IMG/VR virus record: IMGVR_UViG_3300028591_000173 | Span: 4,799 to 68,798 of that record | DNA length: 64,000 nt | Source of the DNA: a virus | Strand: one strand, 5' to 3' | Shown here: one piece after another, positions 20 to 59,731 of the stretch | Numbering within the stretch: position 1 is the first letter of the stretch | How the letters are laid out: every line of letters begins with the position of its first letter | The notes under the pieces: generated by a model | Seen by the model: the letters and a program-made list of their open reading frames with translations, nothing else | Told to the model about the DNA's origin: nothing | Databases searched by the model: none | Program-made: the position numbers and the translations under genes

Positions 20-1114
20 ATGCTCGCGACAAAGCCAGGCAATGGCGGCCACGGCCTGGAAGTATATAACGTCGAGGACGGCAAGTACGCCCAGGTGTCA
101 TGCTCATTCAACGGGCAGCAGATAGACACGTGGGAGCAGTACAGGGACGCCATCCTCGCAAGCAACCCACAGTGGAAAAGCGCCTACGACGGCGACAAGA
201 ACGTCGCCGATCAGTTCGACGCGATGGTTCAGGATCAGCTGTATCCCGAGCTCGTGCAGGGCGAGGTCGACAGGCTGAATATGGAAGGCGAAAGCCAGAT
301 CAGATTCAGCTCCCCCGACGAAGCGGCGCTGAACATGCACAAGCTGTTCGGAAGCAAGCTGGTCGACAATTTGCTCGCCAACAACATCCTGAACAGCGAG
401 ATGATCTCGGTCAACCCGTATAAACCTGACTACAAAGTCAGCGTTTTGGCCGCCTGCATCCAGATGAACAGATATCCGGGCAACAACCGCATGAAACCGA
501 TTACGGCAAGCGATTACAGAGATCGCGCGCGGAACTTCCCAAGCATGAGCCTCGATTACGGAAGCGATGAGGACGATCTGAGAAGGTATCTGTCCGACGC
601 GAAGGAAATCCCGGTGACGAGGAACATGGGCATCGCGAGCGAAGCGGTTTGGAAGGAAGTCAAGAGAAGTTTCTGGGATCAGAATTCCCAAATCAACTCG
701 ACCCTATCGCGCGTCGGCGGGAAGAACTGCTCCTATTTCGGCTCGGTTTGCTATATGGCCACCGGCGGCTACGAATACGACGAAGGCGCCGCCCATACCA
801 TCAAGGGCATCGTGAAGATGGATGGCGTCAAATACACCTTTTGCCCTTATTCCAACAGGGGCGACGACATAGACGCTTTCAGGCAGGCGTTCGAGAGAAA
901 CAAACCCGCGATCGTCGGCAATTTGATCGGCAAACTGACCGAAGGCGGGAAAATGAGCGCGAGCCAGGCAGGGCAGATATGCGCTTCTTTGGAAAGGCAG
1001 ATCTCAAAAGACTGCGGCTTGTGCGCGATGATCATGGGTTTTGACGCGATAGCCGGCGAAGGATACCAATTCGATATCATAAACCCGAATATCGTCGACG
1101 TCGTTTACGATTAG
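20..1114 (+). CDS. hypothetical protein, candidate virion/ejected protein; N-terminal ATKPGNGG...GKY leader shared with the 1340..2362 product
   Basis: 364-aa ORF; SD aaggggagg 7 nt upstream; N-terminal 25 aa align with the next-but-one gene. Confidence 0.6.
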   Translation: MLATKPGNGGHGLEVYNVEDGKYAQVSCSFNGQQIDTWEQYRDAILASNPQWKSAYDGDKNVADQFDAMVQDQLYPELVQGEVDRLNMEGESQIRFSSPDEAALNMHKLFGSKLVDNLLANNILNSEMISVNPYKPDYKVSVLAACIQMNRYPGNNRMKPITASDYRDRARNFPSMSLDYGSDEDDLRRYLSDAKEIPVTRNMGIASEAVWKEVKRSFWDQNSQINSTLSRVGGKNCSYFGSVCYMATGGYEYDEGAAHTIKGIVKMDGVKYTFCPYSNRGDDIDAFRQAFERNKPAIVGNLIGKLTEGGKMSASQAGQICASLERQISKDCGLCAMIMGFDAIAGEGYQFDIINPNIVDVVYD

Positions 1115-1128
1115 CGGAGGCTGCGAGA

Positions 1129-1350
1129 ATGTTTGACGAACTGAAAAGAAGAACAATGGAACGCTTCCACATGACGGAAGAGGAATATTGGGAGAACATA
1201 GACATCTATAGGGACAATGTTTTGACGACCCATAAGATCCTGGATGAGATAGCCCAATACCTCGAAACCCACGACCCCAACGTTCTGAGCATCGAGGCGG
1301 AGAACAAAATAGCGAGGGATATGTTCGGAGGCTACAAATATGGCAACTAA
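1129..1350 (+). CDS. small hypothetical protein (73 aa)
   Basis: ORF with GGAGG upstream; stop overlaps next start. Confidence 0.45.
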   Translation: MFDELKRRTMERFHMTEEEYWENIDIYRDNVLTTHKILDEIAQYLETHDPNVLSIEAENKIARDMFGGYKYGN

Positions 1351-2362
1351 ACCAGGCGGCGGGAACCAGCAGGAAAGCTATGACCCGAATACCGGCAAAT
1401 ACGTCGCCAGCGGCGGCGAGGGCTACCAAGACGACAAGACCGGGCTCAAGAAATACCACAGCGGGTCGATGAAGTCCACCCAGGACATAATCGACGCGAT
1501 AACCAGCGGCGCCTACGGGCAGGATTTTTCCGATTACTATAACCAAGCGGACCCGCAGACCAGGCAGGAGATGATAGACTACGTCCATTCCGAGATGGAC
1601 AGCGCGAACACCCAAGGCGAGATCTCCCAAAGGTTCACGCCGATGGACTACAACGAATACAGGGACTTCCAGCGCCAGGCGATGGCCAGCTCAGGGCTCA
1701 CCCCGCAGGACTGGAGCGTCATAGACCATTACATCGGCACCGGATCGACCTCCTTCTACCTCAACACCGCGATGCGCCTCGGGTACGACGAGATGCTCAA
1801 GCAGTTCAAAGCCGTGAAGGGGTATGACCCGAACACGAACCCAGGCGATTACCTCTCCAGGGCGAACGTCGAGCTTTTCAGAAAGACGATGGAGAAGGCC
1901 ACGCATTCGTGCCACGCCCCGAGGAACATGCAGGTCGACAGGTACATCGGCACCGGCCCTCTCGTATCGTGGCTCAAGAACACGGGCGTCCTGGACGGCC
2001 TCCCGACCGAGAACAACGGCTGGCACGACAGGCTCGTGAAGGGCACGTACACCATGGACGACCTGGCCAACAGGCTGACGGCCCTCATCGGATCGGTGAT
2101 GCCGAAGGACGGGTCGTTCCTCAGCTTCTCCGCCTGCCCGAACCTGTCCCACATGAAAGGGAAGGTCGGGGCGACCAAGAAGGACATACTCATAAGGATA
2201 GACGTCCCGCAGGGGCAGGACATGCTCATCACGAGGAACACCCACGAGAGCGAGGGGATGTTCCCGAACGACATAGATTTCTTCGTGAAGGACGTCAAGG
2301 TCGAGCGCGACGGCGGGATCGGCACGGAAAGGGTGGTATTGTACTATGGAATCAGGAAATAA
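1340..2362 (+). CDS. putative ADP-ribosyltransferase-like protein (R ... S-x-S ... E-x-E motif order), with shared N-terminal leader
   Basis: 340-aa ORF; motifs DRYIGTG / FLSFSAC / HESEGMF in the order and spacing of R-S-E ARTs; internal YIGTG duplication. Confidence 0.5.
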   Translation: MATKPGGGNQQESYDPNTGKYVASGGEGYQDDKTGLKKYHSGSMKSTQDIIDAITSGAYGQDFSDYYNQADPQTRQEMIDYVHSEMDSANTQGEISQRFTPMDYNEYRDFQRQAMASSGLTPQDWSVIDHYIGTGSTSFYLNTAMRLGYDEMLKQFKAVKGYDPNTNPGDYLSRANVELFRKTMEKATHSCHAPRNMQVDRYIGTGPLVSWLKNTGVLDGLPTENNGWHDRLVKGTYTMDDLANRLTALIGSVMPKDGSFLSFSACPNLSHMKGKVGATKKDILIRIDVPQGQDMLITRNTHESEGMFPNDIDFFVKDVKVERDGGIGTERVVLYYGIRK

Positions 2363-2600
2363 CAGATACACCGAGAACATCGAGGGCGTCGACGGCGAGA
2401 TGGTCGGGAGGAAGATGATCGTCCCGAACTGCGCCAAGTGCGTGCATTCCGACGGGCTCAGGTGCGCCAAGATGAACGCGGCGAAGAACGATCTCGCCGA
2501 CCACGGGGTGGATATCTTCCATTGCCCGAGCTTCGAGGCCAAAAAAGACAAGCCGATGGTCGAGAGGGTGAAGACCATGGGCTTCTCATCGGGGGAATGA
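2346..2600 (+). CDS. small Cys-containing hypothetical protein
   Basis: 84-aa ORF overlapping upstream stop; CxxC...C...C. Confidence 0.4.
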   Translation: MESGNNRYTENIEGVDGEMVGRKMIVPNCAKCVHSDGLRCAKMNAAKNDLADHGVDIFHCPSFEAKKDKPMVERVKTMGFSSGE

Positions 2601-2754: not shown

Positions 2755-3624
2755 ATGAACGAGAATCATTACCCAAAAGGAAGCTCAAAAGGCGGCCAAT
2801 TCGCGCCTAAAGACGGCGCCGCCGTCGCCAACGCGATGGGCCTCAGCGAGGCCGACCTGTCCTTTGACGTGCGGAAACAAGGGGAGATGGATTCCCGATA
2901 CGTGAAAGACTCGCTCCCGCCTTTGGCCTCCTATCCGCCTGAGATCAGGCAGACGGCGTCTGCCCTCCATGAGCAGTCGCTGGCCAACGAGGCCCCGATC
3001 ACCGAGGATATGAGAGGCATATCGAAGCTGATCGGCGGCGATATGGTCGGCCTTGACCATGTCGTGAAAAGCCCGGACAGCATCGCCCACAAGCTGCAGG
3101 AGAACATGGAATACTATGGGAACACCGCGCAGGAAGCCGTGGAGTGGTGCGACGACCTCATAAGGTACACCATCCTGTTCAACCCTGACGAGTTCGCCGG
3201 GAGCACCAACGATTTCATCGAGGCGCTGATGTCCCGCGGATACAAGGTCAGATACCTTCAGAACAGGTATCTCGCGTCCAAAAACGGCATGATGCAGGAA
3301 GGCTATAAGGACATAGGGCTGAAGCTCGTGTCCCCGAACGGCCACAAAGTCGAGGTTCAGTTCATGCTCCCGAAGATGTACGCGGCCAAGAACGGCCTGT
3401 CCATCGACGAGCATGGGAATTTCTTCCAAAGGGCGGACGGGATCATGTCGGGGCATGACTACTACGACATGCAGAAACAAGCCAAGATCGGCGACCTTCC
3501 CGACGATGAGAAGCAGGAAAGGCTGCGCTACCTCGATTACATGAACAGGACCATCTACAAAGACGTCGAGATACCCAACGGCGTCGAGAACATAAGGAGA
3601 GAGAATTACTATGGAAGAGAATGA
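2755..3624 (+). CDS. hypothetical protein (289 aa)
   Basis: ORF with SD aaaggag. Confidence 0.6.
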   Translation: MNENHYPKGSSKGGQFAPKDGAAVANAMGLSEADLSFDVRKQGEMDSRYVKDSLPPLASYPPEIRQTASALHEQSLANEAPITEDMRGISKLIGGDMVGLDHVVKSPDSIAHKLQENMEYYGNTAQEAVEWCDDLIRYTILFNPDEFAGSTNDFIEALMSRGYKVRYLQNRYLASKNGMMQEGYKDIGLKLVSPNGHKVEVQFMLPKMYAAKNGLSIDEHGNFFQRADGIMSGHDYYDMQKQAKIGDLPDDEKQERLRYLDYMNRTIYKDVEIPNGVENIRRENYYGRE

Positions 3625-3832
3625 GACCTATTGCCGCTTCGGCAACACGCTATTCAAGACCGATGCGGACGGAAACGACTTCTGGGTCAACCAGAAGTTC
3701 CACGACTCATGGCAGAGAGTGGAATTCGAGCGCGGGCCGCACCCAAGCGCAGGATATCCCATCCTCGACAGGGACGAGGCCCTCGAGTTCGCGAAAGGGC
3801 TCGGCATGAGCGAGGAGGCCTTCGGGGCATAA
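3611..3832 (+). CDS. small hypothetical protein
   Basis: 73-aa ORF, ATGA-type overlap. Confidence 0.45.
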   Translation: MEENETYCRFGNTLFKTDADGNDFWVNQKFHDSWQRVEFERGPHPSAGYPILDRDEALEFAKGLGMSEEAFGA

Positions 3833-3834
3833 GC

Positions 3835-4293
3835 ATGGCCGACGACAGAAACAAAAGATACATAGACGGCTACGACAGCGTCTACAAAGACGTCAGGGAA
3901 GGGCTCAAGAGAGGCGAGAAGAACGGCCACTGGATGTGGTTCATATTCCCGCAGGTGAAAGGGCTCGGCAAATCCCCGGTATCCGATTTCTACGCATTCG
4001 ACGGGATTGGGGACGCCAAGGCGTTCTACGCCAACTGGGGGCTCAGAAGGAGGCTCGTCAGCCTTTTCAGGATAGTCAACTCCTTCCCGGACAAGGCCTA
4101 TCTGACGAAATGCTTCGGCGAGACCGACTCCAAGAAGTTCCATTCGTGCGCGACCATATTCTATCTGGCCACCGGAAAACGCGTTTTCCGCAATTCGCTG
4201 GACAGGTTCTTCGGCGGGGCTTTGGACATAAAGACCGTGGACATACTCAGGGCGAGAAGCGAGTATAAGCCGGACGCTTTACCAAAGCGATAG
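3835..4293 (+). CDS. DUF1810-like small protein (motif HWMWFIFPQ); start trimmed to internal ATG
   Basis: ORF track 3631..4293; upstream part overlaps the preceding gene; ATG at 3835 follows stop 3830-3832. Confidence 0.5.
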   Translation: MADDRNKRYIDGYDSVYKDVREGLKRGEKNGHWMWFIFPQVKGLGKSPVSDFYAFDGIGDAKAFYANWGLRRRLVSLFRIVNSFPDKAYLTKCFGETDSKKFHSCATIFYLATGKRVFRNSLDRFFGGALDIKTVDILRARSEYKPDALPKR

Positions 4294-6979: not shown

Positions 6980-7189
6980 ATGAACAAAAGAAACAAAATC
7001 ATCATCATAATGTCGATCGTATTCATCGTGTTGGCCATAGCCTTCCTCATAACGGGGTTCGCCTTGGCCGGCAACGATGTTCTCGCGTGGTTCGGCTCGA
7101 AATACGCGATGCTGTTCTACATAGTCTTCGGGGTCTATTTCCTCGTCATAATGTACTTCGTCGTAACGGATAGGATAAAGAAGATATGA
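6980..7189 (+). CDS. small membrane protein (2 TM)
   Basis: 69-aa hydrophobic ORF. Confidence 0.5.
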   Translation: MNKRNKIIIIMSIVFIVLAIAFLITGFALAGNDVLAWFGSKYAMLFYIVFGVYFLVIMYFVVTDRIKKI

Positions 7190-8172
7190 GCGCGGAGAGA
7201 GAAGAGAAGAGAAACCCCCTGAACCGAAAGGTTCTTCTCGGGGTGTCGGCGCTTGCCATCGGCGTCGCGCTGATAGCGGTATGCTCGTTCGTGCCGTTCA
7301 TAATCGACCCAAGCAGATGGATGACGGTCGAGTTCCTCACCGACGAGCTGATAATGGTCGCGATAGTCATATTCGCGATGATATCGGCCATGTTCATCGG
7401 GGAGGCGAGCAACGCGCAGGACGAGAGAAGCGCGCTGTCGAAGGCCAGGGTCGAGTTCTTCGGCTCGGTCAAGCCGATAAAAGACAGCATAAACTCCTTC
7501 TCCCAATGGGTGAAGAAAGTGCTCCAGCCAAGGGACATCCTCAGCATGAAGCAGAGGATAATGCGCCAGGCCGGGATAACCGATTACAGCATCCTCGACC
7601 TCGAGGACAGCGAGATCAAGGCGCTCGTCAAGCCGCAGAAATACGGCGACCGCTACTACAAGAGCATCACAAAAGACCAGATCAAGGTCGTCATCGACAT
7701 AAAACACGGGAAGTACAGGGTCAAGCCGGTCGAGCCGGGATACTACCTTTCCGCGAAGAACCTCGTCGACCCGAGGACCATAACCGAGAGATCCGGTCAG
7801 GAAGGCTGGAAAAAAGGCCTCTACCTCTTCAAGGAGGTTTTCTCGAGGATAATGTTCACGGTCATATCGGCGATGATATTCGCCTCCCTCATGAGGGACC
7901 TGACCGCCGAGGATGCCGACGTGGCCGCCGCATGGATCAAATTCATCTCAAGGCTCTGGGCGATGGTATCCAGCGCGTTCATGGGCTACATAACCGGGAC
8001 CAAGGTCAACGACATCGACGCCGAGTACATCGAGATGCGCGTGGCCGTCCACAAGATGTTCTTGCAGGACAAGGACTTCAAGCCGCTGGATGAGCAGGAA
8101 GAGGCCAAGCAGCAGTTCATAGACAGGGTCAAAGAGGAGAACGTCCTCATGATAGAAGACAGGAAGGAGTGA
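7186..8172 (+). CDS. membrane protein (N-terminal TM pair + later TM)
   Basis: 328-aa ORF, ATGA overlap. Confidence 0.6.
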   Translation: MSAEREEKRNPLNRKVLLGVSALAIGVALIAVCSFVPFIIDPSRWMTVEFLTDELIMVAIVIFAMISAMFIGEASNAQDERSALSKARVEFFGSVKPIKDSINSFSQWVKKVLQPRDILSMKQRIMRQAGITDYSILDLEDSEIKALVKPQKYGDRYYKSITKDQIKVVIDIKHGKYRVKPVEPGYYLSAKNLVDPRTITERSGQEGWKKGLYLFKEVFSRIMFTVISAMIFASLMRDLTAEDADVAAAWIKFISRLWAMVSSAFMGYITGTKVNDIDAEYIEMRVAVHKMFLQDKDFKPLDEQEEAKQQFIDRVKEENVLMIEDRKE

Positions 8173-8178
8173 CGGACA

Positions 8179-8721
8179 ATGGCAGAGGAAGAGAGAACAG
8201 AGAACGCCGGGAAAGAGGAAAAGAAGACGCTTTCGGGCTGGCTTGACGACCATCCGAAGTCGGTTTTCGCGACCAGGCTGGTTCTTTGGACCGTCTTCTC
8301 AGCCGTCCTCCCGTTCGCGTTCATAGCGTGGAGATACGGGATATTCACATCCGAATGCAAGATCAAGCTGACCGGGTGGGGATTCATAGCGATAGTCATC
8401 GCCATCGTGTTCCTGTCCACTTTGGTCGGATACCTTTACAAGCTCCTCAAGCCGGGCCTGGTCAAGCAGTGCATAACCGGGCTCCTGAGGATAACCCTCC
8501 CGCTCGTCGTGCTCACCCTTCTGGTGCACAGCATAGCCAACAGCATCAGGCTGTTCGAGCAGGCGCTCATATGCGTCACCGTGTGCGAGACCGTGGGGAT
8601 ACCGATCAACCCGTTCCCTGAGCTGATAGCGAAGGTCCAGAAAGAGGACGAGAACACGAAGGTGGAGACCACGATGGATCTCCTCTGGGACAAGTTCTTC
8701 AAGAGAAAGAAGGACGAATAG
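8179..8721 (+). CDS. polytopic membrane protein
   Basis: 180-aa ORF, 4 predicted TM. Confidence 0.6.
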   Translation: MAEEERTENAGKEEKKTLSGWLDDHPKSVFATRLVLWTVFSAVLPFAFIAWRYGIFTSECKIKLTGWGFIAIVIAIVFLSTLVGYLYKLLKPGLVKQCITGLLRITLPLVVLTLLVHSIANSIRLFEQALICVTVCETVGIPINPFPELIAKVQKEDENTKVETTMDLLWDKFFKRKKDE

Positions 8722-10479: not shown

Positions 10480-13400
10480 ATGAAGCTGAAATGCAGGATA
10501 AACGGCGTCGATTACGACATAGTTCAGGGCGCCACTTTCACGGACAATTTCAACGAGACGCTCGACAGCGCCACCATTTGCCTCGACCAGGTCCGGAAAA
10601 TAGACGGCGTCAGGCAATACGACGACGTTTTCATATGGAACGCCGATGAGTCGTTCGACGGATACGGCGGCCCCAGGGACATAGCGGAGCTGGACGGCGG
10701 GATCACCGTCGGAGGCGACAAACATATCACAGACGCGTGGACCGATGTCTATCTCTCGAGCGGGGGGCTCACCATAGAGGACAAGGGCGCCTATTTCGAG
10801 CTGTCCGGACGGATATGCCAGATATGGTCCTGCATCTTCTACGGGTACACCGACCAGAACGAGGACGAATGCAGGTACAGAGGCGTGAGAATGGACGTCA
10901 CGGCCGGTTTCGTCATGAATGAGGGCCTGAGCCAAACGGAGCACAACGAGAGCGGATTCAGGATAGAAGCCGCCGACGGAAGGGCCCACGGCGGGATCGA
11001 TTCCGAGATAATCCTCACGAACGGGACGCATTCATTCGCGTGCTCCTACTCCCCAGACACGCAGTCCTTCACCGTGGACAAATGGCAGGGGCCGACCCTC
11101 ATCAAATGGCTGCAGAGCTCAGCGGTCGGGTATCAGGTCGACGGCATGAACAAAACCTTCGACATACAGGTCCATGCGGACGACTTCTCAGGCGACGGAA
11201 TCGTCGATTTCAGCATAGAGATCGTCTACAGAGGCAGGACATACACATTCACGATGACCGGCATCGAGGACGTCGACGAATGGACGAAAGTGGTCACTTT
11301 CGAGAACCCTGACCTAGGCAGTCTGGGCATCACCTTCGTCAGCGGCCAAAACGGGGGATGGAACTCGGAAGGCCTGGAGAACAGGGAACCGACCGCCACC
11401 GACCCTTCCGGGATACTCAGGGCGACGGATGGCATGTCCATATCGAACCTGATGGGCGTGAGGGACGGGACCAAAAAGCTCCCGACTTTCTACAAGCATC
11501 TCCTCTTCGACAAATTCCCGGAGGAGCAGGTCGGGCTTGAGACGGGGCTCTACAAGTGCGCCATCGACCTTTTCAGCGAGACGAAGAGGCTTGAGAAGAT
11601 ACCGCTTCCGAACATATCCATAACCCAGTCCCTCGTGCAGGAGAAGAAAAGATCCTGCTGGTTCTACATGAAGGAATACGTCGAGGCCTTCTCTCCTAAA
11701 TACAAGAAAGTCTCGAACAGGAGCGGGCATAAATGGAGATACGTGAGCAAATACTATCTCAGCGAGAGCGGGACGGACCGCGACGGCCTGATAGCCAACC
11801 TCAAGGAGATCTTCGACAGCGTCATATGCCCTGAGATGTCGATGACCAACCCAAGCCTGAAGGATCTGCTCGCGCAGATAATGAGGGTCAAGGACATGAT
11901 CCCCGTGGTCAAGGACGATGTCATATACGGCCTCGACATAAGCCATACGGTCGGGGATTTCGATAGGACGAACGCCAATTTCGTCAGAGGGTCGCTCAGC
12001 AGCGACGATTTCGCCACGGACGCGAGAAGGGAGCACAGCAACGCCCTATCGCAGGAGAATTCGGCCCACATGGTCGAGTACCTCGGGTTCAGGTCGCCCA
12101 ACAGCGTCTTCCTAACGCTCGACCAGCTCACGTTGGAGACAAGGTTCCCGATATACAAGATAAACAGCATCAAGATGTGCTATTACAAGGAAGCCGAGCT
12201 CGTGCCTGCGGCGGGAAGCAGCCTGCCAAGGGTCAAGAAATACTTCCTCTGCAAACAGGACATCACCCCTCTCATACTGCAGAACACCGTAAGGAACACG
12301 CTCAGCACGAACTGGGATAGCTTTCTGAGCGGCAGGCCGGTGGATACCCCCCACGATTTCTCGAACATGGATTACACGGACTTCGACGGCAATAAGGTCA
12401 CCATGGATTTCGCCAAGCAGTTCAAGATATGCACGATCGGATACGACATCGGCAGCAACAAGCTGATGGGCTGGGGCGCCAAATACCAGTATCTCAACGT
12501 GCTTTGGTTCAAGGCGGAATGCTCCTACATAGAGAACATAGTCAACCTCGTCGACGCGATAAACCCATACGGCCTGACCAACCCCCTTCAGCTCAAAGGC
12601 GGAGAGGGATATGAGGGCGTGACCGTACCCGGCGGGATAATGCACATCATGCCGCTTGACGGGGATCAGGACCTTCTCGGGCAGAATCCCGACGAGAACA
12701 TCGCGAAGAAGATAAAATCCATCGTGTTCGAGGTGGATTACGACGCCATGTACAGCGGCGCCATAATGCATGGCAAAGAGAACATAGACAGGGACGACAT
12801 AGTCACCGTCGACAACTGCAGCGCGGCCCTGACCGTCCTTGAGAGCGACGGGCTTTTCGAGCGCGAGAAGATGGACCGCATCGGCAACAAGATCTTCAAG
12901 ATGACGGCCAGATACGACGAGGACAACGGCGGGGCCGACCCAAGCAAGGTCCAGAAGGTCGGAACCTACGACAAAGAGACCGATTCCATAATCTACTCAA
13001 GGGAATACCAGATCTACGACAACGCCATACTCGCCAACTACGAATCCACCAGCGAATACGTCCTGAAGAACTACTTCACCACGGTGTGGGCCAAATACAG
13101 GACGTACAGCCTCATGCCCTATGGCGAGAGCATAAGAAGGGCCGAGAACGTCAGGAAGTTCCTCCTTCTCAGCAAAGAGAAAGCGTATTACGAGAACGAG
13201 GGCAGGGGCGATGAGATGCTTTTCGGCGACGCCGAGACGGCGAAGCAGTTCCTCAGCTTCGTCACCCCAAGCGAACTGGACAAGGAAAGCGGGACGGTGA
13301 GGCACGACGAGAAGATCAACTGCGGGTATTTCGTCTTCTACACAAGGGAAGACGGGAACGAGAACACGGGGATCTACCTCAGCGACGTCAACGCGTTCGC

Positions 13401-17437: not shown

Positions 17438-18493
17438 ATGTCTAGTTATCTGGATTTAAGCGGTCTGTCCCGATATGACGGGAAGATCAAGGCGCTCATA
17501 ACGGCCGAGGCGACCGCCAGGGCCAACGCCGACAGCGCGCTCAGCAGCAGGGTGAGCACGCTTGAGAACGCGGGGTATATCACGAAAGGCGCGAGCAACC
17601 TCGACTACTACTACACGAAGACGCAGTCGGACAGCCGCTACTACGACAAGGCGACGGTGGACGGGTTCATCGCCACGCTGAGCGGCAAGCTCGACATCAA
17701 CGTCGTGACAAAACAAGAATGGCTTGATACCTACGAAGAGCATCCGGACACCTATTACGGTACGGGCGTCTACCTCGTTCCGCAGAACGAAGGCCAAGAT
17801 GTAGGCCCCCACGACGCCTATGACGAGTACATATCCGCCAGATCGGGAACGTCCCCTAACTATACCTACAGATGGGAGAAACTCGGCGACACCAACCCAA
17901 GCCTCAGCGGTTACGTCCCGAATACCAGGACCGTCAACGGCCACGCTTTGTCGAGCAACGTCACCGTCACAAAGGCCGACGTCGGCCTCGGCGACACCGC
18001 CAACGGCGCCCAGGTCAACGTCCTGGAAGGCGTTCAGCTCAACGGGACGGATCTCACCATAACCGGCAAGAAGGTCAACATAAACCTTTCCTCATACGCC
18101 ACCCAGTCCTGGGTCACCTCGGGATACGTCGCCAAGGAAAGCGGGAAAGGCCTGTCCACGAACGATTTCACCAACGCTTACGAGATGGCGCTCCGCAACG
18201 CGTTGGACCCGAATACCGGAAAGGGCGTCGCGTCCGTGGTTTGGGTCAGTGATAATTTCCTTACATTAGACGGATGGGATCCATATCAGACCAAGCTCAA
18301 CGGCATCGCCGCCGGAGCCCAGGTCAACGTCATAGAGGTCATCAAGGTCAATGGCAACGCGGTCTCAGTGACCTCGCCTAAGACCGTCAGCCTCACCATC
18401 CCGACCAAGACGAGCGATCTCACCAATGACAGCGGGTTCATCACCGGCGTCACGTCCATAACCAACTCGGAGATAGACGCGCTGTTCGCGTAA
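17438..18493 (+). CDS. tail fiber protein (repeated YYxK / GLSTNDFT / AGAQVNV fiber-type motifs)
   Basis: 351-aa ORF. Confidence 0.7.
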   Translation: MSSYLDLSGLSRYDGKIKALITAEATARANADSALSSRVSTLENAGYITKGASNLDYYYTKTQSDSRYYDKATVDGFIATLSGKLDINVVTKQEWLDTYEEHPDTYYGTGVYLVPQNEGQDVGPHDAYDEYISARSGTSPNYTYRWEKLGDTNPSLSGYVPNTRTVNGHALSSNVTVTKADVGLGDTANGAQVNVLEGVQLNGTDLTITGKKVNINLSSYATQSWVTSGYVAKESGKGLSTNDFTNAYEMALRNALDPNTGKGVASVVWVSDNFLTLDGWDPYQTKLNGIAAGAQVNVIEVIKVNGNAVSVTSPKTVSLTIPTKTSDLTNDSGFITGVTSITNSEIDALFA

Positions 18494-23417: not shown

Positions 23418-23494
23418 CGGGACGTAGCACAGCTTGGTAGTGCGCCTGGTTCGGGACCAGGAGGTCGTGGGTTCGAATCCCATCGTTCCGACCA
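23418..23494 (+). tRNA. tRNA-Pro(CGG): tRNA-Pro (anticodon CGG)
   Basis: hand-folded cloverleaf: C1-G72, D arm GCAC/GTGC, anticodon loop TTCGGGA, T loop TTCGAAT, A73, CCA. Confidence 0.75.
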
Positions 23495-23524
23495 ATTCGA
23501 ATATGCAAAAATAAAATGAAATGC

Positions 23525-23554
23525 TTGACTATTGATAACAAACAATGGTAAAGT
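23525..23554 (+). promoter_or_regulatory. promoter-like TTGACT-N18-TAAAGT inside the tRNA array
   Basis: hexamers 23525-23530 / 23549-23554. Confidence 0.35.
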
Positions 23555-23593
23555 GATCGTGCTGAGGGGAAATCCTCGGCGAAAACCTGTCAT

Positions 23594-23668
23594 CGCGGGG
23601 TGGAGCAGCGGTAGCTCACTAGGTTCATACCCTAGAGGCCGTGGGTCCGAGTCCCACCCCCGCAACCA
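23594..23668 (+). tRNA. tRNA-Met(CAT): tRNA-Met (anticodon CAT), initiator-like C1:A72 mismatch
   Basis: acceptor CGCGGGG/CCCCGCA, anticodon loop TTCATAC, T loop TCCGAGT, CCA. Confidence 0.7.
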
Positions 23669-23669
23669 T

Positions 23670-23743
23670 GCCGCAGTAGTATAGTGGCAGTACCTCTGCT
23701 TCCCAAGCAGATGGCGCGGGTCCGATTCCCGTCTGCGGCTCCA
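23670..23743 (+). tRNA. tRNA-Gly(CCC): tRNA-Gly (anticodon CCC)
   Basis: acceptor GCCGCAG/CTGCGGC, U73, anticodon loop TTCCCAA, CCA. Confidence 0.75.
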
Positions 23744-23763
23744 ACCGAAAACCAAAGAAACAC

Positions 23764-23839
23764 GCCCACTTAGCTCAGAGGATAGAGCGACGACCTCCTA
23801 AGTCGTAGGCCGAGGGTTCGAGTCCTTCAGCGGGCGCCA
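23764..23839 (+). tRNA. tRNA-Arg(CCT): tRNA-Arg (anticodon CCT)
   Basis: TAGCTCAG D region, anticodon loop CTCCTAA, T loop TTCGAGT, CCA; one A:C mismatch in acceptor. Confidence 0.7.
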
Positions 23840-24052
23840 AAAAAGAAACTCAAGCCGCCAAAACAAACCACCAATTCACCACCTAAGCGCAAGGTCTTTG
23901 TAAGAGTGGGCGGCGTGTAGGGGTTAGGGCTGTAAACTCCCTAACCCTCAACCTAAGGACATAAGGCGCCTATTATAAACGACCAGTTCCGGAAAATTTT
24001 CTTTCAAAACTGACGAAAGGGGAGGGGACAACCGGGGCGCCGCCATCATAAT

Positions 24053-24127: not shown

Positions 24128-24133
24128 TTTGAT

Positions 24134-24210: not shown

Positions 24211-24256
24211 TCAAAAGGTTGTAATCGGCCCCGTCGGGCCATTATGATAGATATGC

Positions 24257-24332: not shown

Positions 24333-24340
24333 CACAGGAT

Positions 24341-24449: not shown

Positions 24450-26984
24450 ATGGCAACAATTCAAGAACTGGAAAAAAGGTATGAATCCATACCTCTTGAG
24501 ATCAAGAAGACCCGCAGATGGGTTGGCTACAGAGTCGAGGAAAGAGGCGGAAAGCAGACGAAAGTCCCTTATGACGCGATCTTCGGCAAATGGGCGAAAA
24601 GCAATGACCCGTCCACATGGACGACATTCAGCCTAGCCATCTCAGGCGCGGTGAAATACGGATTCGACGGCATCGGGTTCATGCTCGGCAAAGACACCGA
24701 GACCGACACCCATTACCTCGGGATAGACCTGGACAACCACGACGAGCCCGATTTCCAGGAGATCGCGAAGGATTTCATCGATACCCTCAACTCATATACC
24801 GAATATTCCCACAGCGGGAAAGGCATACATATCATATGCAAAGGCAAGAAGCCCGTCGGAAGATGCCGCAAAGCGAACATCGAGATGTACGACAACGGGC
24901 GCTTTTTCACCATGACCGGGAAAGTCATAAAGAACCTCCCAATAGCGCAAAGGGACCAAGAGGTCTACTCGCTATGGGAGAAATACATAGAGGACAAAGA
25001 CCATCCGCTCGAGCTCAACAACGCGTTCGCGGACGATGGAGTCGTGGTCTTCGGCAAGAGCTACAGGGCGGTCACGATAGAGAAGGACCCTCTCTCGGCG
25101 AACATGAGCGACCATGACCTCATGGACAAGATCCGCAACAGCCGATATGGGCAGGAATTCAACGCTTTGTACAACGGCGACATGAGCGCCTACGGCAACG
25201 ACCACAGCAAAGCGGATTTCGCCCTGTGCAAGATCCTCGCGTTCTGGACGGGATGTGACAGGGTTCAGATGGACAGGATATTCAGAGGAAGCGCGCTCAT
25301 CCGCGAGAAATGGGACCAAAAGAGGAGTGAGACCAACAGGAACGGCGTCACCCTCAGCGCGGGCACATTCGGGAGCCAGACCATAGAATACGCCATAGCC
25401 ACCCAGAAGGACGTGTACAGGCCCGTCAAGGAAAGGAACGTCGTCGTGGAGAACACGGGGGCGACCCTCGAGCCGACCACCGACGTGGTGGAGTTCGACG
25501 ACAAGATGGACCCGATCATCCCCGTCAAGAAGATATTCAAGACATACCCGCTCAACGACACAGGCAACGCGGAGAGATTCTACGACTATTTCGGCGAGTG
25601 GTTCAAATTCAACAAGGAAAGCAACGGGTTCATGTTCTGGAACGGGAAGACCTGGACCAAGGACATGAAAGGCTGTGTGAGGAAATACGCGAACAAGCTC
25701 ATAGACATACTCAAAGACGAGGTGAAGAGCACCGAGGAGAGAATAGAGAAGGAGAATGATCCGGACGAGGCCGACACGCTCAAATCCGTCCTCAAGGCGC
25801 AATTAGACAATGTAAAAAGAGTGTCGAATAAAGCCGGCAAGGACGCGATGCTGAGCGAGTTGCACGACCTCCACGACCTGCCTGTCGTGAACAGCGAATT
25901 CGACACGCAGGACTACCTCCTCAACACCGACAGCGGGGTATTCGACCTGCGTGACGGCACGAGGCTTCCGTTCGACAAGAAGCTCATGCTCTCCAAGAAC
26001 ACGAACTGCAAAGTGGATTTCGATACCCCGACTGTGTGGCTCAAGTTCCTCCGCGACATATTCAAGCGCCCCGATTCCAAAGAGACCGAGGAGCTCATCG
26101 AGACCATTCAGATGGCTTTGGGCGAATCGCTTACGGGAAGGACCAACAAAGAGCACCTTTACATCCTCTATGGGAACGGCAGCAACGGAAAATCCACATT
26201 CATCAAGGTCGTCAACGACGTGTTCGGCGATTACGGCACGTCGGTCAACAGCGACCTGCTCGTCCAGAGCAACAGCTCAAGCCAGGCCAACGAATTCTCA
26301 TTGTCGGCCCTGCTTGGGGCGAGAATGGTGTCCACGAGCGAGACCGCCGAGGGCAAGAAGCTCGACGAGGTCATCATCAAGAAGATGCTCGGCGGCGAGA
26401 AGATAAACGCCCAGTTCAAATACGGGCAGCCATTCTCGTTCATGCCATCGTTCAGCCCTTGGATGTCGACCAACAACAAGCCTATCATCCGCGCGACGGA
26501 TTTCGGCACGTGGCGAAGGATCTTCTTCGTCCCGTTCCTCAATACCTTCACGGAGCAGACGAAAGACGTGGAGATGCCTAAGAAACTCGCCGCCGAGGCG
26601 CCTAAGATCCTCGGCTGGATGATAAAGGGCGCGATGCGCCTCCACAACGAATTCAAGGACAAACTCCCGAAGCCGAAATGCCTCGAGGAGGCTCTCAGCG
26701 ACTACAAGAAGGAACTGGACGTCATCGTCGCGTTCCTCAACGACCGCTGCATCCGATTCCCGACGATGTCCATATCGGCATCCGTCCTCTATCAGGAATA
26801 CAAGGAATGGGCCAAGAACAACAACGAATACCTGTTCAGCGAGAGCAGATTCAAGCAGGAGATACCTAAGAAAGGCTACAAACTCCACAAAGACATCAAC
26901 AAAGGCTGGGTGTACGTAGGCCTCAAGCTCGCGAAAGACGAGCGAGGGGTCATATTCGGAAGGAACAGCGAACCTCTATGCTAA
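24450..26984 (+). CDS. DNA primase-helicase: N-terminal prim-pol domain + D5-like SF3 helicase (Walker A GNGSNGKST)
   Basis: 844-aa ORF; prim-pol motifs DLD / SGKGIH; P-loop and Walker B. Confidence 0.8.
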   Translation: MATIQELEKRYESIPLEIKKTRRWVGYRVEERGGKQTKVPYDAIFGKWAKSNDPSTWTTFSLAISGAVKYGFDGIGFMLGKDTETDTHYLGIDLDNHDEPDFQEIAKDFIDTLNSYTEYSHSGKGIHIICKGKKPVGRCRKANIEMYDNGRFFTMTGKVIKNLPIAQRDQEVYSLWEKYIEDKDHPLELNNAFADDGVVVFGKSYRAVTIEKDPLSANMSDHDLMDKIRNSRYGQEFNALYNGDMSAYGNDHSKADFALCKILAFWTGCDRVQMDRIFRGSALIREKWDQKRSETNRNGVTLSAGTFGSQTIEYAIATQKDVYRPVKERNVVVENTGATLEPTTDVVEFDDKMDPIIPVKKIFKTYPLNDTGNAERFYDYFGEWFKFNKESNGFMFWNGKTWTKDMKGCVRKYANKLIDILKDEVKSTEERIEKENDPDEADTLKSVLKAQLDNVKRVSNKAGKDAMLSELHDLHDLPVVNSEFDTQDYLLNTDSGVFDLRDGTRLPFDKKLMLSKNTNCKVDFDTPTVWLKFLRDIFKRPDSKETEELIETIQMALGESLTGRTNKEHLYILYGNGSNGKSTFIKVVNDVFGDYGTSVNSDLLVQSNSSSQANEFSLSALLGARMVSTSETAEGKKLDEVIIKKMLGGEKINAQFKYGQPFSFMPSFSPWMSTNNKPIIRATDFGTWRRIFFVPFLNTFTEQTKDVEMPKKLAAEAPKILGWMIKGAMRLHNEFKDKLPKPKCLEEALSDYKKELDVIVAFLNDRCIRFPTMSISASVLYQEYKEWAKNNNEYLFSESRFKQEIPKKGYKLHKDINKGWVYVGLKLAKDERGVIFGRNSEPLC

Positions 26985-35399: not shown

Positions 35400-36947
35400 G
35401 TGAGGACCGACATTTTCACAGAAGAGAACGGCGTAAGGGACTTCGACGTACAGAAGATATTCGGCAAAGGCTACAACAACGGCCTCTTTTTCAATTTCAA
35501 GGGGAGATACCGCTTCTATGTCGGCTCCCGTTCGTCCAAGAAATCCCAGAACATGCTTGGGTATGAGCCGATACTCAAGATCCTCTCCGACCCGAGGAGG
35601 AACATCGTCATGTGCCGTCAGAACGATGTCGACAACAAGAATTCCACGTACGCGAACCTCATAAAATGCATAGAGGATCTGGGCCTCACATCCGAATTCG
35701 CCATAAGGAAGCAGCCGCTTGAGATCGAATACAAGAGGACCGGGCAGATGATAGTCTTCAAAGGCCTCAACAACCCTACCAGCATCACCTCGTCCAAATT
35801 CCCGCATGGCGAGCTTACGGACATCTACATAGAAGAGGCCTACGAATGCCAGAATTATGACGATTTCCTCAAGCTCGACGGCTCCCTCCGCGTCAGCGGC
35901 GAGCTTGCCAAGGAGATAGGCATACAGATAACCTGCGTCATGAACCCATGGTCCCCGGACCATTGGATCTTCACCGAGATATTCAGGGGAAGGCTCGAGC
36001 CGACCGAGGAATACATGGAGACCCACAAATACGACGATTACAGGGACGACGACTACGTCGGGCCTTTCGGCAAGGGCCTCTACCTCCACCAGTCCAACTA
36101 CAAGATCAACGAATTCAGGGACAGGGAGAGCTGGGATCCCGCGGCCGAGCAGATGAAGAAGAGGTCGCCTGAGCTCTACAAGCCGAACTTCCTCGGGCTT
36201 TTCGGGGCCACCACCGGCCTCGCCTACCCGGAATTCTCCACGGCCTGCTACGTCACCGCCCAGGAAGTCATGTCCATGACCGACATAACCGAATTCGCCA
36301 TAGGCATCGACACCGGCCTCTCAAACGGCGAGGGCAAGAAGATAACCATAAAGAAGGGCGAGGACCCGGACCTGAAGATTCGCTCCGCCACGACCATGTC
36401 GCTCGTGGGCGTCACGAGGGATTTCGGCAAGGTCATCGTCGTCGACGAGTACTTCCACTCGAACGACATGTCCTCCAACCAGACCAACACCGACAACAGG
36501 GAGAGCCTGAAGCACCCTGAGCTCATAAAGCAGTGCATCCTCTACATATCGAAGTGGATCGACAAGTACGGGAGGAACCAGACCAAGGGCAACCTGCTCA
36601 TGAAAGGCACGATAAACGTCTACGTGGACAACGCCGACATAGCCACCATACAGGGCCTCGAGATGGAGCTCAGAAGGGTGGGCCTGTTCAACGTCAACGT
36701 GATGGGCTGCACCAAGAAGAGCATCCAGACCCGCGTCGACTTCACGAGGATCCTGATGAGCTACGACTCGTTCAAGATATGCGCCGAGAACTGCCCGAAC
36801 GGCATCAGGGAGTACAAGGCCGCGAGGAAAGGCGAGAAAGGCGAGCCGAGGGCCCCTGGCAACGACCACTACATCGACAGCTGCGACTATGCGTGGGCCC
36901 CATTCTGCACAGAGCTGACCCTCTGGAAATCGTTCAAGGAGCATTAG
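35400..36947 (+). CDS. terL: terminase large subunit (ATPase + nuclease)
   Basis: 515 aa; deviant Walker A VGSRSSKKS, Walker B DIYIEEAYE, nuclease motifs GIDTG / VDEYFH; GTG start with SD aggaag. Confidence 0.75.
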   Translation: MRTDIFTEENGVRDFDVQKIFGKGYNNGLFFNFKGRYRFYVGSRSSKKSQNMLGYEPILKILSDPRRNIVMCRQNDVDNKNSTYANLIKCIEDLGLTSEFAIRKQPLEIEYKRTGQMIVFKGLNNPTSITSSKFPHGELTDIYIEEAYECQNYDDFLKLDGSLRVSGELAKEIGIQITCVMNPWSPDHWIFTEIFRGRLEPTEEYMETHKYDDYRDDDYVGPFGKGLYLHQSNYKINEFRDRESWDPAAEQMKKRSPELYKPNFLGLFGATTGLAYPEFSTACYVTAQEVMSMTDITEFAIGIDTGLSNGEGKKITIKKGEDPDLKIRSATTMSLVGVTRDFGKVIVVDEYFHSNDMSSNQTNTDNRESLKHPELIKQCILYISKWIDKYGRNQTKGNLLMKGTINVYVDNADIATIQGLEMELRRVGLFNVNVMGCTKKSIQTRVDFTRILMSYDSFKICAENCPNGIREYKAARKGEKGEPRAPGNDHYIDSCDYAWAPFCTELTLWKSFKEH

Positions 36948-57258: not shown

Positions 57259-58896
57259 ATGTCCATAACCGTGCAGGAATACATCAGGAAGAAAGCCCTT
57301 GGGCTGGTCGGCCTCATAGAGACGCCGATCGACCCGCGGGTCCGCGAGGAGAGGCTGACGTTCGTCAACAACATCAACGAGGACATCCAGAACAAGCTCC
57401 ACGAGTACTGCGTCTGGTACGGCGGGGACTCAGAGGAGATCCTGAACTACTACAGCAGGGCGCAGGTCCTCGATTTCAACTACGACCCGATCTACAACAG
57501 GAACAAGAAGTCCTACTTCTGGGCGGTCAGCGCCGTCGAGCAGGACATAAAGAGGACCCACTCAGGGCAGCCGAGGAACATCGTCGACACATTGGTCAAC
57601 ATAGTCGGCATCCCGAGGATAAGCGTCGGGTCCGGCGACAAGCTGAAGAAGCTCGACGGGAGGCTTCAGGAGATCCTCAGGGAGAACCACTTCACGAGGA
57701 TGGTCATGCAGCAGGCCAGGCCGATGACGTTCGTCGAGGGCTGGGGCGCATGGAAGATCAACTGGGACAAAGAGATATCGGACTGCCCGATACTGCTCTA
57801 CTACCGCGCCGACGCGGTCGATTTCGTGTATTCGTCCGGCAGGCTCAGGGCGATCATATACAAAGACTATTTCCAGGACGAGAACCGCAAGGACTACGTC
57901 CTGTTCGAGATACGCAGGAGGGACGGCAAGGACCTCGTCATCGAGAAGGAGCTCTTCAGGATGACGCCCGCCTCCGATCTGCTCACCCCGGTGAAGCTGG
58001 AATCGCTCCCTCAGCTGAAGGACGTCAGAAAGACGATCAGGGTCAGCAACTACAAGGGGTTCCTCGGATATCCGTGCATAATATACGAGGACAGCAACGC
58101 GGACACCTACGGCAGATCGATATTCACCGGCAAGATAGACCTGTTCGACGACCTCGACCAGTGCCTGTCCCAGTCGGCCAATACCGTGCGCAGATCCACC
58201 ACGCTGGAGTACTTCGACACGATGTACCTCGAGAAGGACGAGAAGACCGGCATGCCTAAGATGCCTCACGCCTTCGACAGGAAGTACGTCGCGTTCAAGG
58301 GCTTCAGGGGAGGCGACGGGCAGTCCGGCACGACCGGCCCTGTCACCGTAACCCAGCCTAAGCTCGACATCGCGCAGTACAGCGAGGAGGCCACGGCCAT
58401 ATTGCTCCAGATCATATCGGGCATCATGTCGCCGGCCACCCTCGGCATAGACATCGCCAAGAAGGACAACGCCCAGGCGCAGCGCGAGAAGGAGAAGGTC
58501 ACGATCTTCACCAGGAACACCGTCAAGGACGAGGAAGGCGAGACCTTCAGGAGGGTCGCGAACGACCTTCTGATCGCCGATGAGATGATGAGGACCAACG
58601 AGTGCACCTGCCATAACTACGACATCTCGGTCACGTACGACGAGTTCGCCGACTCCTCATTCGAGAACAAGCTCGAATCCGTGCTGGGAGGCTGGAGGGA
58701 AGGCCTGATCAGCGACGAGACGGCCGTCGACTACCTCTACGGCAAGAGCTGGTCCAAGGAGAGGAAGGACGAGGAGCTCGCCAGGATAAAGGCCAAGCGC
58801 GAGGAGTCCGAGAAGGATCCGTTCGCCCAGGGCGCCTATGGCGAGATGGGCGCGGAGAACCCTCACAACGATGCTCTCGAGGACGTTGAGATATAG
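57259..58896 (+). CDS. portal protein (SPP1 gp6-like), acidic C-terminus
   Basis: 545 aa; size and acidic tail; followed by a head-morphogenesis-like gene. Confidence 0.6.
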   Translation: MSITVQEYIRKKALGLVGLIETPIDPRVREERLTFVNNINEDIQNKLHEYCVWYGGDSEEILNYYSRAQVLDFNYDPIYNRNKKSYFWAVSAVEQDIKRTHSGQPRNIVDTLVNIVGIPRISVGSGDKLKKLDGRLQEILRENHFTRMVMQQARPMTFVEGWGAWKINWDKEISDCPILLYYRADAVDFVYSSGRLRAIIYKDYFQDENRKDYVLFEIRRRDGKDLVIEKELFRMTPASDLLTPVKLESLPQLKDVRKTIRVSNYKGFLGYPCIIYEDSNADTYGRSIFTGKIDLFDDLDQCLSQSANTVRRSTTLEYFDTMYLEKDEKTGMPKMPHAFDRKYVAFKGFRGGDGQSGTTGPVTVTQPKLDIAQYSEEATAILLQIISGIMSPATLGIDIAKKDNAQAQREKEKVTIFTRNTVKDEEGETFRRVANDLLIADEMMRTNECTCHNYDISVTYDEFADSSFENKLESVLGGWREGLISDETAVDYLYGKSWSKERKDEELARIKAKREESEKDPFAQGAYGEMGAENPHNDALEDVEI

Positions 58897-59731
58897 GATA
58901 TCCTGGCCCCTGGTCAGATGCGCGGCAGCGATATGCCGCGTTTTCTCGTCGGGGCATGGCAGGCAGCCTGCGCTGAAGGCTATCCGTGCTGAGATCTCAG
59001 GGCTGCCCGATCGGGCGCCGCTCACCAGGGACGAATGCTCCAGGGCGTGGCGGATCGCGTCGGGGCTCCAGAGGGAGCTGACCAGAAAGGCCGACCGCTA
59101 TCTGATGTCGGATCATGACCGTGCTGAGGCGGCCTACCTGGCGTTCAGGGATCTGATGCCGGGGATGATGAGGGCCATCGGGGAGCTCTCAAGGGACGCC
59201 GACTCCAGGATAAGGCTCGAGAGGGCCGAGAGGATCGCGTCCAGGGGGATCCTGTACCTGTGCTCATCCCACGCAGGATGCGCCGAAGGCCACCTGGAAT
59301 ACCAGGGGAGGCTCTACGTGAGCTCGCACTGGAGGGAGAGGTGCCGCGACGCCAGGCTCAGGAAGAGGCTTGCCAAGATGATCAGGGACAGGCATATCAG
59401 GACGGTCGAGTGGGCGATGGGCGCGCCGGCGTACCTGCTGACCAGGCCGAACTGCCGCCACAGGATGGTGAGGGTCCCGATCGAGGAGGCCCTGGGCTCC
59501 ACCGTGCGGAAGATGCTGAGGAGGAGGGATCTCATCCAGACCGACCCCGAAGAACCGGCTTGGGCCGGGGAGATCAGGAGGAAGAGGGCCCAGCTCAGGA
59601 TACTCCGATTCCTCCAGGGGGCCCTACCGTGCTCCGCTTTGGATGGGGACATAAGGAAGCTCAGCCGATCCATAAGGAAAACGGCCGCCAGGCATAAGCC
59701 TGACGACCGAGTCCCGAACCCCGCGGCATGA
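58871..59731 (+). CDS. putative minor head / head morphogenesis protein (Arg-rich)
   Basis: internal ATG of ORF 58838; position after portal. Confidence 0.4.
   Translation: MLSRTLRYRISWPLVRCAAAICRVFSSGHGRQPALKAIRAEISGLPDRAPLTRDECSRAWRIASGLQRELTRKADRYLMSDHDRAEAAYLAFRDLMPGMMRAIGELSRDADSRIRLERAERIASRGILYLCSSHAGCAEGHLEYQGRLYVSSHWRERCRDARLRKRLAKMIRDRHIRTVEWAMGAPAYLLTRPNCRHRMVRVPIEEALGSTVRKMLRRRDLIQTDPEEPAWAGEIRRKRAQLRILRFLQGALPCSALDGDIRKLSRSIRKTAARHKPDDRVPNPAA

Follow-up and report, generated by a model that had tools for sequence, protein, structure and literature searches.

The 64,000-nucleotide (nt) stretch of DNA analysed here (the window; positions 4,799 to 68,798 of IMG/VR record IMGVR_UViG_3300028591_000173) comes from an uncultured phage with a whole genome of about 70 kb, and it opens with a cassette of genes for predicted toxin-like effector proteins that begin with the same short peptide, which we call the leader. 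The first two of these proteins, A and B, have the leader in common and are otherwise essentially unalike, and a third, C, starts with a variant of it. We are confident that the leader is a functional module and, more firmly still, that B is an R-S-E ADP-ribosyltransferase (ART) of the C3/iota class. As to the leader's job, we lean towards the loading of effectors into the phage head. A first-pass annotation, made from the sequence alone, had placed three open reading frames (ORFs) at this end of the window, namely A, B and a small ORF between them that overlaps the start of B, and all three were recovered as described; each has an ATG start and a GGAGG-type Shine-Dalgarno sequence 7 to 9 nt upstream. 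C had been missed. The features of the cassette are listed in Table 1.

Table 1. Features of the effector cassette (positions are those of the window; aa, amino acids; HMM, hidden Markov model)
Feature	Position	Strand	Description
Protein A	20..1114	+	364 aa, predicted leader-tagged cargo with enzyme-like conservation
Leader of A	20..91	+	residues 1-24, MLATKPGNGGHGLEVYNVEDGKYA; leader HMM 34.8 bits
73-aa ORF between A and B	1129..1350	+	candidate A partner (immunity or chaperone); overlaps B start by 11 nt
Protein B	1340..2362	+	340 aa, predicted leader-tagged C3-like ART
Leader of B	1340..1405	+	residues 1-22, MATKPGGGNQQESYDPNTGKYV, then Gly-rich linker; leader HMM 39.2 bits
ART catalytic domain of B	1712..2359	+	residues ~125-340
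Catalytic residues of B	R201 1940-1942; S262-F-S264 2123-2131; E303-S-E305 2246-2254	+	
Cys4 ORF	2346..2600	+	84 aa, overlaps B stop by 17 nt; candidate immunity/inhibitor partner of B
Protein C	2755..3624	+	289 aa, third predicted cargo, RelA/SpoT-like (toxic alarmone synthetase-type) domain
73-aa ORF after C	3611..3832	+	overlaps C stop by 14 nt; candidate C partner
DUF1810 protein	3835..4293	+	152 aa, variable accessory slot; PF08837 E 2.9e-36

A and B share a leader and little else

When all six frames of the window were searched with the pattern KPG..G...Y..GKY, it was found only at the starts of A and B. The two proteins matched each other in a pairwise BLASTP comparison (E 2e-4), and the profiles of their families, built from 15 and 17 database relatives, respectively, aligned with an E value of 1.2e-7. 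After removal of the leader columns a single 21-column stretch was left (E 0.04), and the C-terminal halves did not align (E 0.16, or E 0.075 when the A half was compared with the B ART domain by hhalign in a deeper alignment). Because almost nothing aligns once the leader columns are removed, the similarity signal between A and B is the leader itself. The shared leader claimed by the first-pass annotation is thus confirmed, and its statement that the two proteins diverge completely thereafter proved essentially right.

No part of family A, in which overall identity goes down to about 20%, is as conserved as the leader, and K5, G7, G9, G10 and G21 are invariant in 29 sequences; it is also conserved within family B (17 sequences). 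Its core reads P/E-x-[YFH]-[DN]-x-x-x-G-[KR]-[YF]-[TVA], with a K-x-G-x-G-G stretch ahead, and the effectors are generally laid out as this N-terminal peptide, then a flexible linker rich in Gly and Ser, then an enzymatic domain that varies. In A the leader was modelled as confident, ordered beta-hairpins packed on the protein, with a predicted local distance difference test (pLDDT) score of 86 to 90, and such an ordered hairpin tag would suit beta-augmentation. In the model of B, residues 1 to 27 are of low confidence and look flexible.

No direct DNA repeat joins the starts of A and B, their upstream flanks differ, and synonymous codons differ at 5 of the 12 residues common to both leaders. 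A local duplication, which the first-pass annotation had named as a finding that would undo its proposal, is therefore ruled out as the source of the leader.

The leader is a portable module in related phages

An HMM built from 13 leaders was run over the window and 20 related loci, 2,627 six-frame segments in all. All matches above 16 bits sit at ORF starts, at most 4 residues from the start Met, and the best match below that set scored 4.8 bits. Locus L001 has four consecutive leader genes and L007 also has four, and L005, L006, L009, L019 and L020 have at least one each. Altogether the leader heads at least 10 different cargo types, always N-terminally. Those with a Pfam assignment, in capsid-related phages, include ADPrib_exo_Tox (550 aa in L005, E 7e-20; 406 aa in L009, E 7e-11), ART-PolyVal (L020, E 8e-14) and the kinase Zeta_toxin (L007, E 1.4e-12), and several others have no Pfam match. 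B and the L009 ART align via the leader only, and a 370-aa cargo of L007 has no similarity to C. A search of a 5.8-billion-protein database with a profile of the 44-residue leader N-termini (188 candidates, 7 short fragments) was uninformative on architecture. The octapeptide YDPNTGKY is also seen in large gut-type contigs of 97 to 190 kb (L094-L139), mostly in one highly conserved protein of about 2,580 aa with the context ...KIKYLAISKTYDPNTGKYEDSTDF..., which has nothing to do with the leader system.

Protein B is a predicted C3-like ADP-ribosyltransferase

B was modelled with AlphaFold (AF2) from a 17-sequence alignment, with a mean pLDDT of 85.6, and the model was compared with the PDB by Foldseek, the fold check that the first-pass annotation had proposed. 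C3-like ARTs came out on top, with a best E value of 4.8e-10, a probability of 1.0 and target-normalised TM scores of 0.65 to 0.75; the best matches were C3bot1, C3stau2, Plx2A, Certhrax, CDTa, iota Ia, BECa and VIP2. All top 50 matches are C3-like or binary-toxin ARTs, and more than 130 PDB ART chains matched at E≤1e-3. Sequence identity between B and known ARTs is 12 to 17%.

The ART motifs previously read from the sequence, DRY (with R201), S262-F-S264 and E303-S-E305, are present, and R201, S262, S264, E303 and E305 are invariant in the 17 B-family sequences. In the model, R201 lies in strand 197-203, the SxS motif lies in strand 262-264, and the ExE motif starts strand 305-307; S262 and E303 are 41 residues apart. 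The gap from the Arg to the SxS motif is probably about 15 residues longer in B than in C3bot1 and iota Ia. An ExE motif, as opposed to QxE, is typical of arginine-modifying ARTs, and B is by this motif a predicted arginine-type enzyme.

PF03496 passes in five relatives of B (52 to 64% identity), with 23.9 to 31.6 bits against a gathering cut-off of 23.4, and it reaches E≤1 in 6 of the 17 relatives; the match covers residues ~105-327 and profile positions 4 to 188 of 196. A search of PDB sequences with the B profile gave no ART or other meaningful match, and B had no match among GenBank phages by tblastn.

The pentapeptide YIGTG occurs twice in B (residues 131-135 and 202-206), encoded by an exact 14-nt repeat, TACATCGGCACCGG, at 1730 and 1943. 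The repeat pointed out by the first-pass annotation is thus real, and its reading as an internal duplication was rejected: one copy is in the loop before helix 135-147 and the other in strand 197-203, and since the copies lie in different structural elements, no structural unit was duplicated. The same 4.4 kb holds two further, meaningless exact 14-nt repeats. The first copy falls within a conserved Y-x-G-x-G...F-Y-L-N-x-A-x-R helix region upstream of the core, which PF03496 covers in the relatives, and the second includes the catalytic Arg.

Proteins A and C

Family A comprises 56 representatives at 50% identity, nearly uniform in length and architecture. Its conserved positions are R201 at a strand end, G-S-V-I-Y245-M-S, G340-Y-D342-A and L-N355-P, and an acidic residue alternates between position 350 (E) and position 352 (D). 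Pfam found nothing in any of the 15 A relatives searched, a search of PDB sequences with the A profile gave no meaningful match, and no fold could be recognised in A. By its pattern of conservation, A appears to be an enzyme-like protein without a recognisable fold.

C starts MNENHYPKGSSKGGQFAPK, which contains a variant of the leader (NHYPKGSSKGGQFAPK). Cargo proteins of L005 and L019 have an intermediate leader form, GNPNHKPAGSPDGGQFTSK, with C's variant in full, and the gene at C's slot in L001, matched by position alone, has the full canonical leader MPEKLGNGGHGPEKFDEKTGKYV. C matched the 'head morphogenesis' family phrog_7625 at profile positions 322-472 of 504 (E 1.2e-11), by tblastn it matched MuF/SPP1-gp7 head proteins from pneumococcal, Aggregatibacter and Mannheimia phages, in each case in the C-terminal part, and among PDB sequences there was a weak match to the small alarmone synthetase SaSAS (8vx3, E 0.018). 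Zhang et al. (PMC3482391) described such MuF fusions as toxins of the RelA/SpoT type, and Apk2 is a characterised example (PMC10083569). C is accordingly a predicted toxin of the RelA/SpoT-like nucleotide pyrophosphokinase type. A promoter-like site with 11 of 12 matches lies just upstream of C, at 2706-2734.

A sister motif at portal-effector junctions

The L001 leader MKPGHNGGGNPNHDENGRFTS joins a window-type prefix to a core of the form GNPxHDxxGRF, which aligns without gaps over 10 residues with P-Y-D-x-x-T-G-K-Y-T. A scan of IMG/VR for GNP[NY]HDxxG[KR]F, hereafter the sister motif, returned 71 distinct instances in 70 stretches, 28 of them no more than 30 aa from the first possible start and 24 more than 100 aa into the protein. 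Where the motif is internal, a portal domain (Portal_Mu, Phage_portal or Phage_portal_3) ends shortly before it in 7 of the 10 cases scanned with Pfam, and in 3 of these 7 proteins an effector-type domain follows (PBECR3 twice, LPD3 once). The residue directly behind the motif is T, A or S, and a sequence rich in G, S, A and T follows (58% of the next 12 residues). In locus L059 (IMGVR_UViG_3300025436_000111) a 1,444-aa ORF holds GNPNHDEHGRF at residues ~11 and ~1151, and a neighbouring ORF holds it once more; the two copies in one ORF indicate that the motif can punctuate multi-domain proteins. It is absent from the C-terminus of the Mu portal and from gp30 (F), and it is hence no general feature of portal or MuF proteins. 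The searched text of Iyer et al. 2017 (PMC5512222) makes no mention of the sister motif or leader, and no description of the leader or junction motif strings was found in the searchable literature.

The cassette lies behind the head genes

Relatives of A and B lie on contigs of 63 to 71 kb. The closest long relative is L092, and the window cassette has 67% nucleotide identity to that of L002 across 3.8 kb. These phages reveal what precedes the first base of the window, namely head genes and then the cassette. L001-L004 and L092 encode, one after the other, an acidic scaffold-like protein, a protein of 129 to 142 aa, the major head protein (phrog_422, E 8.5e-60) and a protein of 316 to 322 aa with internal motifs of the DGKFT type, followed by A, the first 73-aa ORF, B, a Cys-rich (Cys4) ORF of about 80 aa, C and the second 73-aa ORF. 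The cassette is on the late strand, with the major head gene on one side and the tail genes on the other, it reaches at least 4293 in the window, and its genes are tightly coupled by overlaps of 11, 17 and 14 nt. Scans of bacterial and archaeal genomes turned up zero relatives of families A and B, and no prophage or host emerged.

The protein between the major head gene and A, which is 316 to 374 aa long where its coordinates were noted (L002 7692-8660, L092 9035-9985, L001 7523-8647), has internal leader-like elements, namely DSGFGxY, GGGG and RTxDGKFTYKS, the last of the DGKFT type. From these elements and its position, it could be another cargo or a docking partner.

Small partner ORFs and an accessory slot

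Most cargo genes are followed by an ORF of 47 to 84 aa that abuts or overlaps their stop. The 73-aa ORF between A and B is syntenic and 49 to 92% identical in L092, L002 and L001, and it has a weak match to phrog_6664 (E 0.0045). The first-pass annotation had considered it a possible partner in this gene pair; being downstream of A, it is more naturally a candidate partner of A, and we keep it as such. For B, the Cys4 ORF is the better candidate for an immunity or inhibitor partner. P27, C29, C32, C40 and C60 are invariant in six such small ORFs (P-C-x2-C...C...C), all of which lie immediately downstream of an ART-type cargo: the B-family ARTs of the window, L092, L002 and L001, the distant, PF03496-positive 550-aa protein of L005 and a similar 551-aa protein of L019, a putative ART. 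BLASTP between the Cys4 ORFs of the window and L005 was not significant; the Cys pattern is nonetheless conserved in the alignment. B and the Cys4 ORF look like a conserved pair of an ART and a zinc-ribbon-like protein, as judged from these sequence patterns. The 73-aa ORF after C is syntenic in L002 and L092, and it does not resemble the small ORF that follows the IPP46 MuF toxin.

The DUF1810 protein that follows matches PDB entry 2jek (Rv1873) with an E value of 5.7e-21. Its slot in L092 (13810-14316) holds a MacroD-type Macro domain (PF01661), and in L007 a DUF1810 homologue (16298-16717, 40% identity) directly follows another leader-tagged cargo. No functional literature on DUF1810 was found. 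An ADP-ribosylhydrolase lies beside the MuF toxin Bxa (PMC11699363) and an HD hydrolase beside Apk2 (PMC10083569), and by analogy the accessory slot may hold 'eraser' enzymes; a role of DUF1810 itself in immunity or as an 'eraser' is speculation.

A proposed role in head loading and its alternatives

A leader on unrelated toxin-like proteins beside head genes is what an injected-effector system should look like. The layout of tag, linker and enzyme, the placement in a late head module and the fusion of the same enzymes to portal or MuF proteins elsewhere together suggest head-protein-fused toxins that have been split. We propose that this region begins a cassette of stand-alone effector (toxin) genes, expressed late and placed directly downstream of the head genes, and that the cassette would be a split version of the MuF- or portal-fused polymorphic toxins of phages. 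The leader would act as a loading tag through which the cargo would dock within the head during assembly, the likeliest site being at or close to the portal or a MuF-type head protein, and the enzymes would be packaged and ejected with the DNA into the next host. The small ORFs (73 aa after A, 84 aa with Cys4 after B and 73 aa after C) would keep the effectors inactive in the producing cell, in parallel to the immunity proteins of polymorphic toxins. A wider form of this proposal is tentative and, in our estimate, clearly less probable: the leader and GNPxHDxxGRF would be a widespread, portable 'cargo-loading peptide' of tailed phages that docks free effectors in trans to the portal or inner head, and A would be a new family of injected enzymes, possibly a very divergent ART.

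Several points weigh against head loading. We infer from context that A, B and C are present in virions and are packaged and injected, and the docking partner, the immunity function and the substrate of B are assigned in the same manner, the immunity function of the small ORFs purely from their position. Family A has never been seen fused to MuF or portal, and the window's own B has no match to PF03496 at E≤1 and reaches no Pfam ART threshold. The junction motif is absent from the window's own portal. An ORF directly after the portal gene (58838..59731) is a probable short MuF (Phage_Mu_F)-like head protein, as judged from its motif, the signature ...RPNCRHRM... with H/C-rich stretches, and it has no Pfam or PHROG match; its true start is probably downstream of 58838. 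We also infer that the window-type leader (KPGxGG...YDxxTGKY) and the GNPxHDxxGRF motif are one entity, from their co-occurrence in the L001 cassette and the gapless 10-residue core alignment, and the HMM that detects both was built from both. Finally, back-translated YDPNTGKY was found in 48 stretches of IMG/VR, all internal in unrelated proteins. Its presence inside unrelated giant proteins indicates that the bare hairpin core lacks specificity.

Head loading has to be set against the view that the cassette holds toxin-immunity or anti-defence genes whose products act only within the producing or infected cell and stay out of the virion. They would then serve, for example, host takeover, superinfection exclusion or interbacterial competition after lysis, and the shared N-terminus would meet some other common need, such as oligomerisation, regulated degradation, binding to a common host target or translational control. 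A toxin with a small downstream ORF is the classic toxin-immunity layout, and enzymes that could reverse toxin products, such as the Macro protein of L092, matter in the producing cell; a late-strand position between the major head and tail genes is, however, atypical of early takeover genes. The MuF toxins are themselves without demonstrated injection (PMC10083569, PMC11699363), yet these kinds of cargo are found covalently joined to portal or MuF in other phages, and a strictly N-terminal tag with a flexible linker has the architecture of a trafficking signal. We consider this explanation unlikely.

Slightly less probable again is that the leader is a processing or junction element between a head protein (portal or MuF) and its fused cargo, such as a protease or self-cleavage site or a structural 'plug', so that on stand-alone proteins it would be the remnant of a gene split and any packaging would proceed via something else. 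The sister motif does sit exactly at portal-cargo junctions and recurs within one protein (that of L059), but a vestige should decay, whereas the leader is invariant in family A down to about 20% identity. Proteolytic processing has been predicted for polyvalent proteins (PMC5512222); against it here, no protease gene was found in the window or among the head genes of the relatives, and the leader of A was modelled as an ordered, packed hairpin and not as an exposed cleavage loop.

The last explanation, that the N-terminal similarity of A and B arose by chance or recent local duplication, that the motifs of B are fortuitous and that there is no functional system, can appeal to a Gly-rich leader of only about 22 residues whose YDPNTGKY core recurs in unrelated proteins, and we give it next to no weight, as it is effectively refuted by the profile-profile E value, the Foldseek match of B at probability 1.0, the leader HMM and the exclusively N-terminal position on at least 10 cargo types, and the differing codons without a DNA repeat.

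Comparison with known systems

The closest parallel to the proposed head-loaded effectors is with the MuF-fused polymorphic toxins, whose RelA/SpoT and ART members have been described (PMC3482391; Jamet et al. 2017, PMC5576092; Apk2, PMC10083569; Bxa, PMC11699363). The toxin kinds are the same in both, a C3-like ART and a RelA/SpoT-type alarmone synthetase, and the domain of C is homologous to the C-terminus of pneumococcal MuF toxins. Small ORFs follow the toxin genes and 'eraser' genes lie near them (an HD hydrolase or ADP-ribosylhydrolase there, Macro or DUF1810 here); gene order (L001-L004 and L092), cargo diversity and the downstream small ORFs all agree with the parallel. The systems differ in that the effector is here a separate polypeptide with an N-terminal tag of about 20 residues, that several such genes stand in tandem, and that they follow the capsid gene, whereas MuF toxin genes follow the portal gene. 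Neither Pfam nor PHROGs revealed a MuF domain (PF04233/PF06152-type) in A, B or C, and C matches only the toxin part of phrog_7625.

Portal and MuF fusions of polyvalent-type effector domains were noted by Iyer et al. 2017 (PMC5512222). ART-PolyVal, PBECR3 and LPD3 occur on motif-bearing proteins, and polyvalent proteins, too, are predicted to be delivered from the head with the DNA; they carry 2 to 15 effector domains in a giant protein, in contrast to one recognisable or predicted domain per small protein in A, B and C.

The first-pass annotation had likened the leader to the capsid targeting sequence that T4 carries on IPI-III and Alt (Mullaney & Black 1996, as cited in PMC9958956). The likeness is a short N-terminal peptide common to unrelated proteins, one of them an ART, with presumed head loading and injection, and on this functional level the analogy holds. 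In sequence and processing it does not: the sequence of the leader does not resemble those of the T4 targeting peptides, no prohead protease turned up among the 92 ORFs of the window (E≤1e-4) or the relatives' head genes, no T4-like scaffold core was detected, and the (L/I)-x-E cleavage site is not conserved in the leaders (G-L-E in A, with the Leu misplaced, and Q-Q-E in B). The leader of A also appears, from its model, to be a structured part of the mature protein.

With the C3-like and binary-toxin ARTs (C3bot1, C3stau2, Plx2A, Certhrax, iota Ia, CDTa, VIP2; PF03496), B has in common the fold, the R/S-x-S/E-x-E motifs and the 41-residue spacing from Ser to Glu. It differs by an added helical N-terminal region of about 100 residues plus the leader, and it has no signal peptide or binding component. 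A further comparison is with encapsulins, whose HK97-fold shells take up diverse enzymes by way of short Gly-rich terminal peptides on a flexible linker. These peptides mostly sit at the C-terminus and have another sequence, and their binding to the shell interior has been shown.

Phage ARTs, packaged ARTs such as T4 Alt and head-protein-fused polymorphic toxins are already known, and the system is for this reason not categorically new. Three things are apparently novel: that free-standing effectors arrayed behind the capsid gene carry a short, conserved N-terminal tag, that this tag is akin to the portal-junction motif, and that an ART is paired with a Cys4 ORF. According to the Apk2 and Bxa papers, whether and how head-fused toxins enter virions is still open (PMC10083569, PMC11699363), and a tag common to free effectors and portal-effector junctions would bring an answer within the reach of simple constructs. 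If the tag acts as proposed, it would mark a way of delivering polymorphic toxins that has so far gone unrecognised, alongside covalent fusion with MuF or portal, and it would serve as a sequence signature with which to search metagenomes and uncultured phages for injected effectors. It could also be used in engineering, for the loading of foreign proteins into phage heads and for protein delivery by phages. The cassette is also a source of new enzyme candidates. These are the C3-like ExE ART, whose candidate Cys4 partner is conserved, the proteins of family A, and the DUF1810 protein, which may be an 'eraser' or act in immunity.

Other features of the window

The phage functions encoded in the window include primase (24450..26984), helicase, large terminase (35400..36947), portal (57259..58896) and a tail-fibre-like protein (17438..18493), and coding is on one strand nearly throughout, up to about 60 kb. 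The large terminase has at most 34% identity to any GenBank phage terminase. Downstream of the cassette, several predicted membrane proteins (7186-8721) precede a 1,705-aa ORF (10480-15597), whose counterparts in the relatives are 1,488 to 1,797 aa long; it has no PHROG match and might serve in the tail or in ejection. Just upstream of the primase gene, at 23418-24414, lies an array of eight tRNA genes (Pro, Met, Gly, Arg, Gln, Leu, Thr and Ala), with a tRNA-Ile(tat) at 31238-31314 and an odd tRNA-like call at 32644-32716.

The C-terminus of the portal (58850-58893) ends ...GAYGEMGAENPHNDALEDVEI, loosely like the GNPNHD motif with H and N swapped, which may be a coincidence or a decayed junction motif. 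Between the portal/MuF region and the scaffold and capsid genes off the window lies a minus-strand block (59890-63730) that contains a helix-turn-helix regulator-like ORF (60743-60943) and over which the AT skew flips; it looks like an inserted regulatory or moron module that splits the head genes.

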